Of a stretch of 64,000 bases of DNA, positions 18,976-31,563 are shown one piece after another. Under the pieces are notes generated by a model. That model was not told the origin of the DNA and ran no database searches. It was given only the letters and a program-made list of their open reading frames with translations. The translations under genes and the position numbers were made by a program. Position 1 is the stretch's first letter. Each line of letters starts with the position of its first letter. This DNA comes from Candidatus Methylomirabilia bacterium (GTDB lineage: Bacteria > Methylomirabilota > Methylomirabilia > Rokubacteriales > CSP1-6): positions 21,112-85,111 of the forward strand of contig JBGQHJ010000002.1 of NCBI GenBank assembly GCA_041497895.1. Direction: 5' to 3'.

Positions 18976-19779
18976 ATGCCCGCTCAAGACCTGATCGTGG
19001 ACCTGGCGATCCGCTACGGATTCCAGGTCCTCGGCGCGATCGTGATCCTGTTCGTCGGGCTCCTGGCCGCGTGGTGGGTGGGCAACACGGTCGAGCGGCC
19101 GCTCACGCGCATGGCGCTCGAGCCGCCGATGCGGCGGCTGATGGTGCGGGTCGTGAGAGTGGTGGTGCTGCTGTTCGCCCTGGTGATCGCGCTCGACAAG
19201 TTCGGCTTCCAGATCGCTCCCCTCGTGGCCGGCATCGGGGTGGCCGGGCTCGGCATCGGCATCGCGCTCCAGGGCGTGCTCGGCAACGTGATCGCCGGGC
19301 TCACCATCATCTTCACCAAGCCGTTCCGGGTGGGCGAGCACATCGAGATCGTGGGCATGAAGGGCGACGTCCACACCATCGAGCTGTTCTCGACCACGCT
19401 GGTGCATCCCGACCAGTCCCGGATCATCATCCCGAACCGGAAGATCGTGGGGGAGATCCTGCACAACTTCGGGACGATGAGGCAGATTCACCTGTCGGTG
19501 GCGGTTCCGCACGGCTCCGACCTGGCAGCGGTGCTGGCCCTGACCCGCGAGGTCGTGGCCGCCAACCCGCGCGTGCTGCCCCAGCCCGCCGCGGTGATCG
19601 GGGTCGCGCAGATCGAGGCTACCGGGGTGCGGATAGGGGTCAGTCCCTGGGTGAAGGTGCCGGACGTGGTCGTCGCCGAGGCCGAGATCTACCGGGCGCT
19701 GGTCGAGCGGTTCGGCGCGGCCGGGATCGCCGTGCCGCTCCCGCGGCAGGAAGTTCAGCTCGTCAATTCAGGGCGTTAA
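18976..19779 (+). CDS. mscS: Small-conductance mechanosensitive channel
   Basis: Three TMs, GIALQGVLGNVIAG, KPFRVGE, IIIPN. Confidence 0.9.
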   Translation: MPAQDLIVDLAIRYGFQVLGAIVILFVGLLAAWWVGNTVERPLTRMALEPPMRRLMVRVVRVVVLLFALVIALDKFGFQIAPLVAGIGVAGLGIGIALQGVLGNVIAGLTIIFTKPFRVGEHIEIVGMKGDVHTIELFSTTLVHPDQSRIIIPNRKIVGEILHNFGTMRQIHLSVAVPHGSDLAAVLALTREVVAANPRVLPQPAAVIGVAQIEATGVRIGVSPWVKVPDVVVAEAEIYRALVERFGAAGIAVPLPRQEVQLVNSGR

Positions 19780-19809
19780 CGCCACCGGCCGCGTGCCGTC
19801 AATGAGTTC

Positions 19810-19845
19810 TTGACATAGCCGGTCGGAATAGTACTATTCCGACCG
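19810..19845 (+). promoter_or_regulatory. sigma70-type promoter with a 26-bp perfect palindrome (candidate operator)
   Basis: TTGACA(19810-19815)-N16-TACTAT(19832-19837); CGGTCGGAATAGTACTATTCCGACCG at 19820-19845 is its own reverse complement. Confidence 0.7.
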
Positions 19846-20048
19846 TGCATCAGGTTCTGACGAGAGAGCCCTTCGCATCCCCCGCCATCCGCTGCCAGGT
19901 CTGCGCGACCAAGATCGTCGTGCCCGGCGTGGCGGACGTGGTCGTCAAGAACGCCATCCTGCGCGTGGATCGGGCCTCCGGGCACGTGGCCGCCAAGTGT
20001 CCCCGCTGTAAAACCTGGGTGGACGTACCCCTCCGGTACGTCGGGTGA
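19845..20048 (+). CDS. Small Cys4 zinc-ribbon protein (resembles Mu Com-type IRCxxC...KCPRCK)
   Basis: IRCQVC...KCPRCKT; 67 aa; GC-rich third positions; first ORF of the sulfite reductase operon. Confidence 0.7.
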   Translation: MHQVLTREPFASPAIRCQVCATKIVVPGVADVVVKNAILRVDRASGHVAAKCPRCKTWVDVPLRYVG

Positions 20049-20080
20049 GGCACACCTAGGCAAGGCACAAGTCGCAGCAT

Positions 20081-20143
20081 CGAGACGGAAAGCCGAGCGG
20101 GGGCCGCAGCTGGAAGCGGCCCTCCTCGGCTTTCGCGTTCTCG
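20081..20143 (+). promoter_or_regulatory. Long intercistronic RNA hairpin abutting the SD of the reductase gene
   Basis: CGAGA/TCTCG, GAAAGCCGAG/CTCGGCTTTC and GGGCCGC/GCGGCCC arms, 8-nt loop; SD GGGAGG begins at 20143. Confidence 0.6.
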
Positions 20144-20155
20144 GGAGGACACGAC

Positions 20156-21853
20156 GTGAGCATAGCGGTGACGGAGACGAAGGCGCAGCGGGTGGAGCGA
20201 CTCAAGCGGGAGCTGAACCCGTGGGGCGCGTACGCGGAGATCGAGCGGTTCGCGCGCGACGGGGTGGGCTCGATCCCGCCCGAGTGGCTGGCCACCTACT
20301 TCCGCTGGTGGGGCATCTACACCCAGGGCGACGGGGTGGGAGCGATCGGCGGCAAGGGCGGGGAGGGGCGCGCGGTGCCGTACTTCATGCTGCGCATCCG
20401 CATTCCCAACGGCTTCCTCACCGCCGCCCAGCTGCGGACGGTGGCCGACCTGGCCGAGCGCCACGTGCGCGGCATCGCCGATCTCACGATGCGCCAGAAC
20501 ATCCAGCTCCACTGGGTGGCGATCGAGGCCCTGCCCGCGATCTTCTTGGCCCTGGCCGCCTGCGGCCTCTCGAGCCTCGGCACCTGTGGCGACGTGACCC
20601 GCAACATCACCGGCTGCCCGCTCGCCGGCCTCGAGGGCGACGAGCTCCTCGACGCCTCGCCGCTCGTGCAGGCCGCGACCGCGATGGTCAACGGCAGCCC
20701 CGAGTTCTACAACCTGCCCCGCAAGTACAAGGTCACGATCACCGGCTGCCGCGTGTGGTGCTCGTATCCCGAGATCAACGACGTGGGCCTCACCGCGGTG
20801 CGCGACCCGTACTCGGGACGGGTCGGCTTCTCGCTCCGGGTGGGCGGCGGGCTCTCGACCCGGCCGCACCTCGCCCCGCGTCTCGACGCCTTCGTGCGCC
20901 CCGAGCAGGCGCTGGCGGTGGTCAAGGGTGTCTCGGAGATCTTTCGCGACAGCGACGTGCTGCGCCAGAACCGCGAGAAGGCCCGGCTCAAGTTCCTCTT
21001 CCTGGATCACGGCTTCACCGTCGAGCGCTTCCAGGCCGCGCTCGAGGAGCGGCTCGGGTTTCGCCTCGATCCGGGCGTGCCCGAGGACCTGCCCGACGAG
21101 GCCTATCGCGACCACGTCGGCATTCATCCGCAGAAGCAGGCGGGACTGGTGTACGCCGGTCTGCCGATCCTGCGAGGGCGGCTCACACCGGACGAGATGC
21201 GGGCGATCGCGGACCTGGCCAGCCGCCACGGCTCGGGCGAGCTCCGCGCCACCAGCATGCAGAATCTCGTCGTCGTGAACGTGCCGGCGGCCCGCGCGGC
21301 CCGGCTCGGGCGCGACGTGACCGCGGCCGGGCTGCGCCTCGACGGCTCGCCCTTCCGCCGGGGCACCGTGGCCTGCACCGGCAGCGAGTTCTGCAAGCTC
21401 GCGCTGACCGAGACCAAGCGCTTCGCCGGCTGGCTCGTGCAGGACCTGGAGGCCCGGCTGCCTGGCTTCCAGGAGCACGTGCGCATCAACGTCACCGGCT
21501 GCCCCAATAGCTGTGGCCAGCACTGGATCGCCGACATCGGCATCGAGGGCAAGAAGGTGAAGGTGGACGGCCGCCTCGTCGACGCCTACTACTTCTGCGT
21601 GGGCGGCGCGGTGGGCCGGCACCAGACGGTGGCGCGGCCGATCGGGTACCGCGTGCCCGCGGCCCACGTGCCCGACGCGGTGGAGCGGTTGCTGCGCGCC
21701 TATCTCGCCGGGCGGCGCGACGGGCAGACCTTCCGCGCGTTCTGCGCGGTCCACACCGACGACGAGCTCCGCACCTTCCTGGCCGGGGCCGAGGTCGTCG
21801 CGGTGGCGCGGGACAGTCCCGCGGGTACGATTCCCCACGGAATCGACGGCTGA
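20156..21853 (+). CDS. Siroheme [4Fe-4S] sulfite/nitrite reductase (probably assimilatory sulfite reductase)
   Basis: MLRIRIP, TMRQNIQLH, CGDVTRN, LPRKYK, ACTGSEFC, GCPNSCGQH; adjacent to siroheme genes. Confidence 0.9.
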   Translation: MSIAVTETKAQRVERLKRELNPWGAYAEIERFARDGVGSIPPEWLATYFRWWGIYTQGDGVGAIGGKGGEGRAVPYFMLRIRIPNGFLTAAQLRTVADLAERHVRGIADLTMRQNIQLHWVAIEALPAIFLALAACGLSSLGTCGDVTRNITGCPLAGLEGDELLDASPLVQAATAMVNGSPEFYNLPRKYKVTITGCRVWCSYPEINDVGLTAVRDPYSGRVGFSLRVGGGLSTRPHLAPRLDAFVRPEQALAVVKGVSEIFRDSDVLRQNREKARLKFLFLDHGFTVERFQAALEERLGFRLDPGVPEDLPDEAYRDHVGIHPQKQAGLVYAGLPILRGRLTPDEMRAIADLASRHGSGELRATSMQNLVVVNVPAARAARLGRDVTAAGLRLDGSPFRRGTVACTGSEFCKLALTETKRFAGWLVQDLEARLPGFQEHVRINVTGCPNSCGQHWIADIGIEGKKVKVDGRLVDAYYFCVGGAVGRHQTVARPIGYRVPAAHVPDAVERLLRAYLAGRRDGQTFRAFCAVHTDDELRTFLAGAEVVAVARDSPAGTIPHGIDG

Positions 21854-21888: not shown

Positions 21889-22548
21889 ATGACGCTACGA
21901 CTCGGTGACACCGCTCCCGACTTCCAGGCCGAGACCACCGCCGGCCCGATCCACTTCCACGAGTGGCTGGGCGACGCCTGGGGCCTGCTCTTCTCCCACC
22001 CGCGCGACTTCACGCCGGTGTGCACCACCGAGCTCGGCTACGTGGCGCGGCTGCGCCCCGAGTTCGAGCGGCGCGGGGTGAAGGCGATCGGACTCTCGAT
22101 CGACCCGGTGGACTCGCACCGGGGCTGGGCCGCCGACATCCAGGAGACGCAAGGGCACGCGGTGAACTTCCCGATCATCGCGGACCCGGACCGGAAGGTG
22201 GCCGACCTCTACGGCATGATCCATCCCGCCCACGACGAGGTCTACACTGTACGCACCGTGTTCGTGATCGATCCCAAGAAGAAGATCCGGCTCTTCATCA
22301 CGTATCCCCAGACCACCGGGCGGAACTTCGACGAGATCCTGCGGGTGATCGATTCGCTCCAGCTCACCGACCGCCACCGCGTGGCCACTCCGGTGAACTG
22401 GAAGCCGGGCGAGGACGTGATCATCGTGCCGGCGGTCTCCGACGAGGAGGCGCGCGCCAAGTTCCCGGCCGGTTGGCGGGCGTTGAAGCCCTACCTGCGC
22501 CTGACGCCCACGCCGGGACGCGAGGCGGTCGAGACCGCCAAGCGGTGA
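21889..22548 (+). CDS. 1-Cys peroxiredoxin (Prx6/LsfA-like)
   Basis: FSHPRDFTPVCTTELG, YPQTTGRNFDEILR, ATPVNW. Confidence 0.93.
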   Translation: MTLRLGDTAPDFQAETTAGPIHFHEWLGDAWGLLFSHPRDFTPVCTTELGYVARLRPEFERRGVKAIGLSIDPVDSHRGWAADIQETQGHAVNFPIIADPDRKVADLYGMIHPAHDEVYTVRTVFVIDPKKKIRLFITYPQTTGRNFDEILRVIDSLQLTDRHRVATPVNWKPGEDVIIVPAVSDEEARAKFPAGWRALKPYLRLTPTPGREAVETAKR

Positions 22549-23180
22549 GCGCGCGCGAGTACTACCCGCTCTTCCTCGACCTGGCCGATCACCCCTGCCT
22601 GGTGGTCGGGGGCGGTCCGGTAGCCGAGGGGAAGGTGGCGGGGCTCCTGGCCGCGGGCGCGCGCGTCACGGTGGTGAGTCCCACCGTGACCGCGCGGCTC
22701 GCGGGCTGGGCCGCCGAGGGGCGGCTGATCTACCTGGCGCGCGAGTACCGCGCCGGCGACGTCGACGGCCAGCGGCTCGCGCTCGTGGCCACCCACGACG
22801 CGGAGGTGACCCGGGCGGTCGTCGCGGACGGCCGCGCCCGCTCGGTGCTGGTCAACGCCGCCGACGAGCCCGCGCGCTGCGACTTCATCCTGCCCGCGGT
22901 GATCCGGCGCGGCCGCCTCGTGGTGGCGGTGTCGACGGGCGGCGCGAGCCCGGCGGCGGCGCGGGCCATCCGCGAGGAGCTGGAGGGCTACCTGACCGAG
23001 GCGCACGCGGCGCTGGTGGAGCTGGCCGCGGAGGCGCGAGAGGATCTGCGGCGGCGCGGCGTGTCGCCGGGTCCCGCCCGCTGGCGCGGCGCGCTCGACG
23101 ATCGCCTGCGACGGCTCATCGCGGACCGCCGCTACCGCCAGGCCCGCGCGCGCTTGGCGGGAAGCCTCGAGTCGGCATGA
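22545..23180 (+). CDS. Precorrin-2 dehydrogenase/sirohydrochlorin ferrochelatase (CysG N-terminal/SirC-like)
   Basis: YYPLFLDL, VVGGGPVA, VNAADEP..CDF, VSTGGASP; GTGA overlap. Confidence 0.88.
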   Translation: MSAREYYPLFLDLADHPCLVVGGGPVAEGKVAGLLAAGARVTVVSPTVTARLAGWAAEGRLIYLAREYRAGDVDGQRLALVATHDAEVTRAVVADGRARSVLVNAADEPARCDFILPAVIRRGRLVVAVSTGGASPAAARAIREELEGYLTEAHAALVELAAEAREDLRRRGVSPGPARWRGALDDRLRRLIADRRYRQARARLAGSLESA

Positions 23181-24049
23181 TCGAGCCCGGTCGCGTCTAC
23201 CTGGTCGGTGCCGGACCGGGCGATCCCGGGCTCATGACGGTGCGTGGCCTCGAGGTGCTGCGCCGCGCCCGCGTGGTCGTCTACGACCGTCTCGTCGACC
23301 CGGCCCTGCTCGACGAGGCGCCGCGGGGCGCCCTCCGTGTCTTCGCGGGCAAGCGCGCGGGCGCCCACTGCCTGCCCCAGGCGCAGATCAATGCGCTGCT
23401 GGTCGAGCAGGCGCGGCGAGGCCGCGTCGTGGTGCGCCTCAAGGGCGGCGATCCGTTCGTGTTCGGCCGCGGCGGCGAGGAGGCGCTGGCCCTCGCGGCG
23501 GCCGGGATCCCCTTCGAGATCGTGCCCGGCGTCAGTGCCGCGGTCGCGGTGGCCGCCTACGCCGGGATCCCGGTGACCCATCGGGGGCTCGCCTCGTCGT
23601 TCGCGGTGGTGACCGGACACGAGGACCCGGGAAAGGGCGCCGCGAAAGTAGACTGGGCGGGGCTGGCCACGGCGGTCGATACCCTCGTGGTGCTGATGGG
23701 AACGAAGAGCCTGCCGCGCATCGCGGCCACGCTGATGGCGCACGGTCGGCCGCCGGACACCCCGGTGGCGCTGATCCGCTGGGGGACGACCGAGGCGCAG
23801 GAGACGGTGGTCGGCACCCTCGGCGACATCGTCGCGCGCGCCGCGTCGGCCGGGCTGGTCCCGCCGGTGCTGGCGGTGATCGGAGCGGTGGTGAGCCTGC
23901 GGGAACGGCTCGGATGGTTCGGGCCGCGCGACGAGGTACTGGTTGGCGGTGCACCGGGAGATGCCGGCCAAGCTGATCATCCCGGCCACCGGGACCCGGG
24001 TGGTGTTCGGCGCCTAGCCCGCGGCGCGCAGCGCGTCCTGAAAGTTTGA
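23177..24049 (+). CDS. cobA: Uroporphyrinogen-III C-methyltransferase
   Basis: VYLVGAGPGDPGLMT, RLKGGDPFVFGRGGEE, GIPVTHRG. Confidence 0.93.
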   Translation: MIEPGRVYLVGAGPGDPGLMTVRGLEVLRRARVVVYDRLVDPALLDEAPRGALRVFAGKRAGAHCLPQAQINALLVEQARRGRVVVRLKGGDPFVFGRGGEEALALAAAGIPFEIVPGVSAAVAVAAYAGIPVTHRGLASSFAVVTGHEDPGKGAAKVDWAGLATAVDTLVVLMGTKSLPRIAATLMAHGRPPDTPVALIRWGTTEAQETVVGTLGDIVARAASAGLVPPVLAVIGAVVSLRERLGWFGPRDEVLVGGAPGDAGQADHPGHRDPGGVRRLARGAQRVLKV

Positions 24050-29521: not shown

Positions 29522-29550
29522 TTGACTAGCCCCGTGCGCCTCCGTAGCCT
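29522..29550 (+). promoter_or_regulatory. sigma70-type promoter for the flavoprotein remnant-LLM-FMN reductase unit
   Basis: TTGACT(29522-29527)-N17-TAGCCT(29545-29550). Confidence 0.55.
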
Positions 29551-29559
29551 TGTCGCACC

Positions 29560-29895
29560 ATGGAGGAGCGGCACGAGACGGTGATCGTGGGCGGTGGCCA
29601 CGCGAGGCTCGCGATGAGCCACCAGCTGAGCCGGCGCGGGCGCGCACACGTCGTGCTCGAGCGCGGGCGGGTGGCCGAGCGGTGGCGGAGCGAGCGCTGG
29701 GACTCGCTCCACTTCCAGTTCTCCAACTGGAGCCTCACCCTGCCCGGCCCGCCCTACGACGGCCCGCACCCGGACGGTTTCTCCTCCCGCGCCGACGGCG
29801 ACCATCTGGCGGAGCACATCGCGTCGCGGGCGGACGCCCCGGCGCTCGGCCCAACGCTCAGCCCAACGCTCAGCCCAACGCTCAGGAGGACATGA
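29560..29895 (+). pseudogene. Internally deleted FAD-dependent monooxygenase/oxidoreductase
   Basis: N-terminal VIVGGGHAR (degenerate GxGxxG), VLERGRVAERWRSERWDS...PDGF joined directly to a C-terminal-like LAEHIASR; only 111 aa. Confidence 0.65.
29849..29884. repeat. 12-bp tandem repeat x3 (GCCCAACGCTCA)
   Basis: Three exact copies immediately before SD GGAGGA of the LLM gene. Confidence 0.9.
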
Positions 29896-30989
29896 TGACG
29901 GTCGAGCTCATCGGCATGATCGGCGTGAGGCCCGAAGGGGCGGACGGCGCCGCGGTGCACGTGATCGGCGGTGCGATCGACCTCGGCTGGGTCCGCGACT
30001 TCTCGCGCGCCCACGAGGTGGCCGGCTTCGACAAGGTGCTGGTCGGTTACACCGCGACCTCGGCGGACGGCTTCCTCGTCTCGAGCTACGCGGCCTCGCA
30101 CACCGAGCGGCTCGGCTACCTGATCGCGCACCGCCCCGGCTTCGTCGCGCCCACGCTCGCCGCGCGCAAGGCGGCCACCCTCGACCAGCTCTCGAACGGC
30201 CGCGTCTCCCTGCACATCATCACCGGAGGCAGCGATGCCGACCAGGCGCGCGACGGCGATTACGCCGATCACGACACGCGCTACCGGCGGACCGACGAGT
30301 ACCTCGGGCTCATGCGCCGGATGTGGACCGAGGAGCGGCTGTTCGATCACGAAGGGGAGTTCTACCGGGTGACGAAGGCCGGCTCGGACGTCAAGCCGGT
30401 CCAGAAGCCGCACATCCCGCTCTACTTCGGCGGTGCCTCCGAGGCCGCGCACCGGATCGGGGCGCGACACTGCGACGTCTACATGCTCTGGGGCGAGCCG
30501 CTCGCCGCGATGCGCGACCGGATCGCGGAGGTGCGCGCCGCCGCCGCGCGCGTCGGACGGGACCCGCGCGAGCTGCGGTTCAGCGTCTCGCTGCGGCCGA
30601 TCATCGCCCCCACGGAGGCCGCCGCCTGGGCCAAGGCGCGCGGGATCCTCGAGCGCGTCCAGGCCAAGCAGGGTGACCGCACGCTGCCGCTGCCGGAGGC
30701 GGTGGGCGCCCGGCGCCTGGTGGACTTCGCCCAGCAGGCCGAGGTGCACGACAAGCGGCTGTGGACGCCGATCGCGGCCGCGGTCGGCGGCGCCGGTAAC
30801 ACCACCGCGCTGGTGGGCACGCCGGAGCAGGTGGCCGAGTCGCTCCTCGACTACTACGACCTGGGCGTCTCCACCCTGCTGATCCGCGGGTTCGATCCGC
30901 TCGCCGACGCGGCCGAGTACGGTCGCGAGCTGATCCCGCTCGTTCGCGCCGGGGCGGCCCGGCGCGATCGGGACCGGCCGGCGGCCTGA
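29892..30989 (+). CDS. LLM-class flavin-dependent monooxygenase (SsuD/MsuD-like)
   Basis: IAHRPGFVAPTLAARKAATLDQLS.GR, RYRRTDEY, YFGGAS, LWGEP, GNTTALVGTPEQVA. Confidence 0.9.
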   Translation: MMTVELIGMIGVRPEGADGAAVHVIGGAIDLGWVRDFSRAHEVAGFDKVLVGYTATSADGFLVSSYAASHTERLGYLIAHRPGFVAPTLAARKAATLDQLSNGRVSLHIITGGSDADQARDGDYADHDTRYRRTDEYLGLMRRMWTEERLFDHEGEFYRVTKAGSDVKPVQKPHIPLYFGGASEAAHRIGARHCDVYMLWGEPLAAMRDRIAEVRAAAARVGRDPRELRFSVSLRPIIAPTEAAAWAKARGILERVQAKQGDRTLPLPEAVGARRLVDFAQQAEVHDKRLWTPIAAAVGGAGNTTALVGTPEQVAESLLDYYDLGVSTLLIRGFDPLADAAEYGRELIPLVRAGAARRDRDRPAA

Positions 30990-30993
30990 GCCG

Positions 30994-31563
30994 ATGCCCC
31001 GCCTGCTCGCGGTGGTCGGGGCGGTGACCCCGCCGGGAAGGCTCGACGCGGCGGTGCGCTTCGCGGCCGACTGCGCGGGCGCGCTGCCCGATGTCTCGGC
31101 CACCGTGCTGAGCCTGGGAGCCCACCGCATCTCCTTCGCCGACGGGCGCCCGCTCGAGGGCTACGCCGACGACACCGCGCGGATCGTGAGCGCGGTCGCG
31201 GCGGCGGACGCGGTGCTGCTCGCGAGCCCGGTCTACCGCGCGTCGTTCACCGGCGCGCTGAAGAATCTGCTCGACCTCACCCCGCTGCCCGCGCTCCGCG
31301 GCAAGCCGGTGGGGATCGTGGCCATGGGAGCGACCTCGCACCACTACCTGGGAGTGGACTGGCAGCTGCGGGCCGTGCTCGCCTGGTTCGGGGCGCTGGT
31401 GGTGCCCACCAGCGTCTATCTGGAGTCCGGGCACTTCCAGGACGGGCGGCTCGCCGATGCCGGCGCGGCCGCCGCGCTGACCGACCTGGTTCGGGCCCTC
31501 GTCGCGATGACGGGCCACGCCCGGGAGCAGGCGGGGCCGCCGCCATTGGCGGCCGGGCGCTAG
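30994..31563 (+). CDS. NADPH-dependent FMN reductase (SsuE/MsuE-like)
   Basis: ASPVYRASFTGALKNLLD, GKPV, HYL; follows the LLM gene. Confidence 0.88.
   Translation: MPRLLAVVGAVTPPGRLDAAVRFAADCAGALPDVSATVLSLGAHRISFADGRPLEGYADDTARIVSAVAAADAVLLASPVYRASFTGALKNLLDLTPLPALRGKPVGIVAMGATSHHYLGVDWQLRAVLAWFGALVVPTSVYLESGHFQDGRLADAGAAAALTDLVRALVAMTGHAREQAGPPPLAAGR

Follow-up and report, generated by a model that had tools for sequence, protein, structure and literature searches.

The window analysed here is a stretch of 64,000 nucleotides from Candidatus Methylomirabilia bacterium (Methylomirabilota; Rokubacteriales; contig JBGQHJ010000002.1, positions 21,112 to 85,111 of the forward strand). Its source, hereafter its own genome (G000), is high in GC, 5.1 Mb in size and 87% complete. 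Our subject is the leader of a sulfite-reductase/siroheme operon on the plus strand, which may well act as a cysteine-linked transcription attenuator. The operon is headed by a 67-aa, four-cysteine (Cys4) open reading frame (ORF), here named ZR (19845..20048), which encodes a zinc-ribbon protein with the motif RCxxC ... KCPRCK. A spacer of 107 nt containing a long hairpin separates ZR from the reductase gene, sir (20156..21853), whose Shine-Dalgarno sequence (SD) GGGAGGA (20143-20149) and GTG start at 20156 occupy 20143..20158. The Pfam domains NIR_SIR and NIR_SIR_ferr mark the product as a ferredoxin-type (NirA/Sir) sulfite reductase. Its NCBIfam matches are of NirA/CysI type, every one under the equivalog cut-off, and sulfite is its likely substrate because cysH and sat are neighbours in a related locus (L020). 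Then follow, as a first-pass annotation made from the letters of this DNA had proposed, a 1-Cys peroxiredoxin of the Prx6 kind (21889..22548; Pfam and NCBIfam matches) and siroheme genes, namely the N-terminal part of siroheme synthase (dehydrogenase/ferrochelatase; 22554..23180, start approximate; NAD_binding_7, Sirohm_synth_M) and uroporphyrinogen-III C-methyltransferase (23177..24049; TP_methylase), all on the same strand.

The small ORF had been taken as a real gene, and the comparison bears this out. Homologues at E<=0.01 number 152, almost all 57-90 aa long; in an exhaustive profile search, 120 representative clusters matched at E<=0.001, 48 of them also at E<=1e-10. Besides the four cysteines, R16, N36, A37, V41, K51, R54, W58, V59, P62 and Y65 are invariant, and the median pairwise ratio of nonsynonymous to synonymous substitutions (dN/dS) of the core, 0.32, points to purifying selection. 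The AlphaFold2 (AF2) model is an all-beta ribbon with a mean confidence (pLDDT) of 86.8, a predicted Cys4 zinc-ribbon fold, and the protein is basic, with a net charge of about +6 counted from the sequence. No curated Pfam or NCBIfam family matched ZR at its cut-off, and a single one of 52 distant relatives lay barely over that of the generic TFIIB zinc-ribbon model. A Foldseek search of the PDB with the AF2 model gave no match at E<=0.001, a wide VIA search gave generic zinc ribbons only (ELOF1, RPB9, NrdR; best Z 3.2) and the ESM Atlas unnamed clusters only. Judged from its sequences, ZR is a conserved, real protein of an unnamed zinc-ribbon family. Near the end of the gene (20026-20045), the codons for D-V-P-L-R-Y-V make a perfect 8-bp inverted repeat, GACGUACC ... 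GGUACGUC, that uses the rare valine codon GTA (2.2% of GTA+GTG in the genome) and is kept in close relatives, in part via G-U pairs; it is perhaps a pause hairpin.

ZR had also been likened to Com, the small zinc-binding regulator of phage Mu. The resemblance in motif and gene position is genuine, but membership of ZR in the Com family cannot be demonstrated. The Pfam model Zn_ribbon_Com (PF10122) has no match in ZR at E<=1, yet finds Mu Com at 2.7e-9, and among the 52 distant relatives it gives sub-threshold knuckle matches in four (E 0.003-0.009). Aligned with Mu Com by hhalign, ZR scores a probability of 28.9% over 18 columns that cover one of the two knuckles.

The promoter of the cassette consists of a -35 hexamer TTGACA (19810..19815), a 16-nt spacer and a -10 hexamer TACTAT (19832..19837), both on the plus strand, followed after 7 nt by the GTG of ZR at 19845. 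The coordinates of this TACTAT-N7-GTG arrangement, noticed in the first reading, are confirmed. It is the geometry of a leaderless gene, and it appears conserved, because the first in-frame start lies 6-7 nt past the -10 in 60 of 88 distinct ZR loci. An exact TTGACA precedes ZR in 77 of these 88 related loci, and the -35, the conserved spacer and the -10 were common to all of the first 36 loci. In the own genome, a position weight matrix of the promoter has the ZR site as its only high scorer (31.0 bits; next best 24.6). Contigs from RNA libraries (four runs, relatives 90-99% alike) start at 19818-19820 and 19855 and none spans 19746-19786, although contigs cannot show RNA ends; one of them starts upstream of the predicted start, and we draw no conclusion from them in either direction. 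A perfect 26-nt palindrome, found as a self-inverted BLAST match, covers the -10 and reaches the start codon (19820..19845); it is a possible operator for some DNA-binding factor. Other clades have the same conserved promoter spacer and lack the symmetry.

Past the end of ZR lies a terminator-like hairpin (20087..20135, plus strand) with a conserved base, GAAAGCCGAG/CUCGGCUUUC, a variable GC-rich top and a U-containing tail. The predicted folding energy of the segment 20040-20170 is -65.8 kcal/mol, whereas 200 shuffles give -49.3 +/- 3.7 (z -4.5; none as good); the median among loci for the terminator hairpin is -36 kcal/mol. The top differs among loci but pairs in all, compensatory changes occur in three of the nine modelled base pairs, and several relatives have tails of five to six U. 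Its build makes an intrinsic terminator the best interpretation of the hairpin, ahead of a mask of the SD. As there is no room for a promoter between it and sir, sir must be read through it. Promoter and hairpin are each single-copy in the 5.1 Mb of the own genome, so the hairpin is not a dispersed repeat, and that objection falls. An RNA-library contig of a relative (X1 record 4, 19926-20199) bridges ZR, the hairpin and the start of sir, which is weak evidence.

The first-pass annotation had the base of this hairpin touching the SD, and indeed the last two paired G's of the extended stem (20080-20144) are the first two bases of GGGAGGA. Together with a gene order like that of com and mom, and with a predicted pairing of the SD in several loci to bases 6-18 nt past the ZR stop, this recalls translational control of the Com/mom type, in which ZR would bind beside the hairpin, open it and free the SD and start of sir on a constitutive transcript. 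We consider such control very unlikely. Across 22 loci the SD is often predicted to be paired, but its partners change and in the window its core is mostly unpaired; the stem is built like a terminator, with A-tract, GC and U-tract parts; and no sequence relation of ZR to Com is detectable. The masking of the SD as the chief role of the hairpin is thus not supported.

Just before the terminator lie two short boxes on the plus strand. Box 1 (GGC-ACAA-GUC, 20064..20073) is predicted to pair with box 2 (GAC-GGAAA-GCC, 20084..20094), which is also the base of the 5' arm of the terminator. The resulting box hairpin is quasi-symmetric, with an outer GGC/GCC helix, an inner GUC/GAC helix and a purine-rich 4x4 loop, and by sequence and predicted pairing it takes the first ten bases of the terminator 5' arm. 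When the segment is folded in isolation, 56 of 64 parsed sequences have this hairpin as their minimum free energy structure. The consensus of the RNA element is a box 1 of the form GGC-N3-7-GUC, 4-17 nt, a box 2 of the form GAC-N3-7-GCC, and a long GC-rich hairpin starting in box 2. Its covariance model, R1, has a single match in the own genome and detects the element in 45 of the 151 genomes of the phylum sample. Of the 29 best phylum loci, 26 have the element directly behind ZR (one of these, L113, belongs to the unpublished genome G058) and one more is cut at a contig end. The element is kept in front of both sir and beta-carbonic anhydrase (beta-CA) genes, and also downstream of distant ZR genes on contigs whose GC content is 46-65%.

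The cassette of promoter, ORF, boxes and terminator keeps company with genes of sulfur assimilation. Of 35 species-representative loci, 24 have the start of sir 28-170 nt past ZR, one has siroheme genes and a distant sir-like gene behind ZR, and in the other ten a ZR paralogue stands ahead of a 163-aa beta-CA. Loci from metagenomes and from the phylum repeat the ZR-sir pattern, the former adding a rhodanese-ZR-TauE-sir cluster and a Prok-JAB-ZR pair, and leaders of cysH-sat bear the same promoter and RNA element. ZR itself is present in 45 of the 151 phylum-sample genomes (a tally that includes the unpublished G058 and G047), and four congeners without ZR and without the element are also without sir. 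The comparative evidence shows the cassette to be a conserved control unit with ties to sulfur assimilation. The post-transcriptional switch for sulfur assimilation that had been suggested at first therefore survives in part: the conserved unit, the linkage of homologues to a downstream sir and the cysH-sat leaders support it, and Com membership and the SD mask drop out.

Some of these loci call for separate remarks. The beta-CA behind the ZR paralogue has as its best PDB match Rv1284 of Mycobacterium tuberculosis (3.8e-64). Its match to COS hydrolase is confined to the N-terminal part and does not establish a sulfur role, though the unit may serve to scavenge sulfur, for example by COS hydrolysis. 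The paralogue/beta-CA loci with the same promoter and element are L015, L016, L019, L021, L022, L024-L026, L028, L035 and L051-L059, and several continue with a luciferase-like monooxygenase and a CREG/PNPOx-DUF2470 protein. A distant ZR homologue (L085:2311-8153, GC 59%) with the same 3' RNA element lies between a NikR gene and TonB genes; the set downstream (TonB, a TonB-dependent receptor and an SBP_bac_5 protein) is a metal-uptake and not a sulfur context. Near-identical cassettes filed under metagenome-assembled genomes of Verrucomicrobiia and Binatia (L004, L031) are probably mis-binned Rokubacteria contigs rather than cases of gene transfer.

A protein so often found next to sir might be thought to assist the ferredoxin-type enzyme, as an accessory protein or as a carrier of electrons, the hairpin serving to end or stabilise the ZR transcript and to set the ZR:Sir ratio. 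There is precedent in CysX of Corynebacterium glutamicum, a small protein encoded beside cysI that has four conserved cysteines and the deletion of which slows growth on sulfate and sulfite (PMC1266029), and in other small CysI accessory proteins, DUF2849 and DUF934 (10.1101/072470). ZR also stays beside sir where the leader element is further upstream (L020) or deleted (G031, G035). We nevertheless judge this account unlikely, since three congeners keep sir without any ZR, paralogues of ZR with the same promoter and element stand before beta-CA and the distant ZR before TonB genes, transcription can reach sir only through the hairpin, and the conservation of box 1 tracks ZR, as detailed below. 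A predicted complex of Sir and ZR scored 0.00, which speaks neither for nor against binding.

The relation between ZR and the boxes emerges from 67 distinct elements. Both boxes are intact in all 59 elements with ZR upstream, three of which have a compensatory GGUUCG/CGAAC inner helix and two G-U variants, and in all three cysH leaders of genomes with ZR elsewhere, so that box 1 is intact in 62 of 62 elements of ZR genomes. In genomes without ZR, box 1 is altered in five elements of five (GCC in three, GAC in one, GUC to GAC in one), and these represent three independent lineages. As box 1 is intact only where ZR exists, an RNA-directed role of ZR suggests itself; taken together, the counts favor the view that ZR is what box 1 is retained for, also in leaders that do not encode ZR in cis. 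These patterns suggest that ZR acts on the leader RNA, binding being a well-motivated inference. They also bear on the idea that box hairpin and terminator form a small metabolite-binding riboswitch, with ZR as a passenger. The purine-rich symmetric internal loop and the persistence of the element in two leaders without a Cys-coding ORF (L131, L127) would fit it. Yet, box 1 decays exactly where ZR is lost, the aptamer would measure less than 35 nt, and a scan of the leader RNA against Rfam gave a single match, to a miRNA model on the minus strand at E 0.86, and no riboswitch family. We regard a riboswitch as highly improbable.

The link to cysteine comes from what replaces ZR. Three members of the window's genus (G127, G106 and G033, 86-92% complete) have no ZR anywhere and keep promoter, terminator and sir. 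In the slot of ZR they carry leaderless mini-ORFs, MKKAVVSRRAHRCCCPGCCPGAPQAF, MKKATGRALEHRCCCPGAA and MKQVMISVAQHFCCCPAGDRGAF, with the peptide runs CCC or CCCPGCC. The loci are L112, L114 and L122, the first two being the remaining two of the 29 best element loci, and these short leaders have the runs of Cys codons expected of an attenuator. In genomes that keep ZR beside sir, cysH(-sat) leaders encode MRCSCIGRCPG or MLHSCPGELPS ahead of the element. Other variants are a decayed ZR remnant, an 'MD-stop' leader (G043) and a cysH leader without ORF (L127). The Cys codons of mini-ORFs and of the decayed remnant are TGT in 16 of 17 cases, against a genome background of 6.7%. ZR itself shows a related bias at its second knuckle (TGT-CCC-CGC-TGT-AAA, 19998..20012), a candidate site for slowing or sensing the ribosome: among 85 distinct ZR sequences TGT is used at Cys3 in 61 and at Cys4 in 47, compared with 11 at Cys1 and one at Cys2, and Lys56 is AAA in 42 (background 2.2%). 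The counts are not independent, because the sequences are related, but the pattern spans both ZR subfamilies. Other marks of an attenuator are present at the level of sequence, namely the leaderless geometry, the intrinsic terminator between ORF and structural genes, and downstream genes in the pathway (sir, siroheme genes, cysH, sat), the exceptions being the beta-CA and TonB contexts. Searching the own genome for stretches of Cys codons was uninformative (455 matches, mostly out of frame).

A side find in the lineage is a Trp leader (L135, G045:C6:17800-18700, the same as L010:2709-2783), MTRSESLWWWRRWWCPEGGRTAPA, with the run WWWRRWW followed by a terminator with the base AAGCCGAGGG/CCCTCGGCTTTTTTT. 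Given this similar terminator, classical leader-peptide attenuation appears to be in use in the lineage. The same find weakened a candidate of ours, the hairpin base AAGCCGAG/CUCGGCUU as a ZR-specific site, since the Trp leader has the same base.

Cysteine-dependent translation of the leader had been offered in the first reading as an alternative to a Com-like sensor, and the poly-Cys mini-ORFs of three congeners and the rare TGT codons of the second knuckle lend it strong comparative support. These data might even seem to make a protein input superfluous: attenuation could be purely ribosome-mediated, through stalling at the second-knuckle UGU codons, with ZR unrelated or non-regulatory. The replacement of ZR by mini-ORFs, the concentration of TGT at Cys3 and Cys4, the conserved leaderless geometry and the Trp-type leader in the lineage all agree with this, as does the mycobacterial precedent (10.1101/834739). 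Moreover, the poly-Cys leaders allow classical segments: AGAAGGCC towards the 5' end, GGCCUUCU at the stop codon and, as part of the terminator arm, GGAGGCC. It would, however, leave unexplained both the strong conservation of the ZR protein and the invariance of box 1 in genomes with ZR, cysH leaders included, next to its alteration in those without. In addition, some 80 nt separate the last Cys codon of ZR from the terminator arm, and a search for alternative pairings gave none that was significant. We hold a ribosome-only mechanism to be improbable, though it deserves to be kept in view.

We favor instead a mechanism with two inputs, and give a probability of roughly 0.55 to the reading that the leader of the sulfite-reductase/siroheme operon is a cysteine-linked transcription attenuator to which both translation and ZR contribute. 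A strong, conserved promoter of the sigma-70 type would start the mRNA at or beside the GTG of ZR, and a putative intrinsic terminator about 40 nt past the ZR stop would decide whether RNA polymerase enters sir, prx, cysG and cobA. The weak, imperfect hairpin of boxes 1 and 2 just before it could act as an antiterminator, because it borrows the first ten bases of the terminator 5' arm. The first input would be translation of the leader ORF, made sensitive to Cys-tRNA by its rare UGU codons, and the second the ZR protein, acting in trans on box 1; the operon would be ON when cysteine is scarce. In such a scheme ZR would work formally like LicT on the RAT hairpin, HutP or TRAP, and like Com only as a small zinc ribbon acting on the mRNA behind its own gene. 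A LicT/RAT-like antiterminator role would be structurally natural, because the weak box hairpin needs stabilising to beat the terminator. A TRAP-like role, with box 1 masked when cysteine, and hence ZR, is plentiful, fits the physiology better, and between the two we leave the polarity undecided. In its more general form, the comparative evidence indicates that the cassette is a new form of transcription attenuation linked to cysteine.

A more ambitious version, which we offer tentatively and at less than even odds, is that ZR is the first member of a new family of RNA-binding attenuation proteins built on a zinc ribbon. They would bind a RAT-like hairpin (GGC-GAAA-GUC / GAC-GAAA-GCC) over the terminator and couple read-through into sir, cysH-sat and a beta-CA to cysteine, either by their Cys/UGU-dependent synthesis or by the metal state of the Cys4 site, and would have been swapped for poly-Cys ribosome sensors at least once within one genus.

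Several observations weigh against the two-input attenuator. Some concern the RNA. In the window, the terminator has a poor U-tail (UUUCGCGUUCUC). Taken by itself, the box hairpin has a low predicted stability (median -5.9 kcal/mol) that shuffled sequences match (median z -1.0), and covariation gives it slim support, since its pairs hardly vary (one helix variant and two G-U variants). A stronger antiterminator between the 3' coding region of ZR and the terminator arm was sought, and the duplexes were no better than shuffles (z about 0, with a crude picking of hairpins). Others concern translation. The distance from the ZR stop codon to box 1 ranges from about 12 to 28 nt, so a terminating ribosome is not always over box 1. 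ZR in the window has four scattered Cys codons in 67 and no run, and the 'MD-stop' leader of G043 and the ORF-less L127 have no Cys codon at all. The last concern ZR and its distribution: the lineages that lost it number only three; G031 and G035 have ZR right before sir with the element deleted, and a third ZR-only genome, G065, has a decayed element only, behind its ZR paralogue, so that the tie between ZR and the element is not universal; and the beta-CA and TonB contexts are not obviously those of cysteine genes.

The surroundings of the operon vary. Compared with loci L012, L030, L032, L033, L104 and L113, the 1-Cys peroxiredoxin gene of the window's clade is placed after sir and before the siroheme genes, whereas in other clades it is divergent upstream of the ZR promoter or further downstream; in G019 (L106) it lies immediately 3' of ZR and the element. 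CysH and ATP-sulfurylase of L020 had no tblastn match at E<=1e-10 in the own genome (87% complete), where sir is present. Further along the window (29550-31563) a luciferase-like monooxygenase and an NADPH-dependent FMN reductase are encoded, which might be a source of sulfite from sulfonates.

If our interpretation is right, cysteine-responsive attenuation by leader ORFs, shown so far in mycobacteria, would also operate in Methylomirabilota/Rokubacteria, an uncultivated phylum of soil, and would exist in a form based on a terminator. A literature search of limited scope found no paper on the ZR leader system. The genus of the window offers a rare natural experiment, in which one promoter-terminator frame holds either a folded zinc ribbon or a poly-Cys mini-ORF. 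Should ZR bind the box hairpin, it would represent a new class of small attenuation protein, the 'leader peptide' being itself the regulator. With about 350 bp of DNA and a protein of 67 aa, the system is small enough for direct reporter and binding assays, and the covariance model R1 provides a sequence signature for annotating sulfur regulons in Methylomirabilota/Rokubacteria genomes.

Known systems share parts of this arrangement. With Com and mom of phage Mu it has in common a small Cys4 zinc-ribbon gene directly 5' of the target with structured RNA between (the order matches record AF083977) and an RCxxC ... RCPRCK-like motif. It differs in that homology is undetectable, the spacing between the ZR knuckles is 31 residues, ZR is chromosomal and linked to sulfur genes, its hairpin is terminator-like, and its RNA binding is our inference. 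CysX of C. glutamicum is likewise a small four-Cys protein beside a ferredoxin-type sulfite reductase; cysX lies downstream of cysI and is not known to have a leader or terminator role (PMC1266029).

LicT/SacY with RAT, HutP and TRAP are RNA-binding proteins of attenuation and antitermination, and the hut operon opens with its regulator gene, after which come a terminator and the structural genes. The ZR operon has this same order, and its weak, quasi-symmetric hairpin overlapping the 5' arm of a putative terminator resembles their targets, whereas ZR has no CAT/PRD, HutP or TRAP domain in Pfam and NCBIfam scans. In peTrpL of Sinorhizobium meliloti, a short Trp leader peptide acts in trans with a small RNA and antibiotics (PMC7298713), a second activity for an attenuator leader product such as we propose for ZR, although ZR is predicted to be a folded metal-binding protein. 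The closest parallel is with the leaderless poly-Cys small ORFs that were experimentally shown to be cysteine attenuators in mycobacteria (Canestrari et al., bioRxiv 10.1101/834739). Both have a leaderless first ORF with Cys codons before cysteine or sulfur genes, and the sister genomes analysed here have true CCC or CCCPGCC mini-ORFs in the same slot. The model locus described in the mycobacterial work unmasks a ribosome-binding site, whereas here a putative intrinsic terminator follows the ORF, and the leader ORF, in another phylum, is mostly a conserved, folded zinc ribbon of 67 aa.

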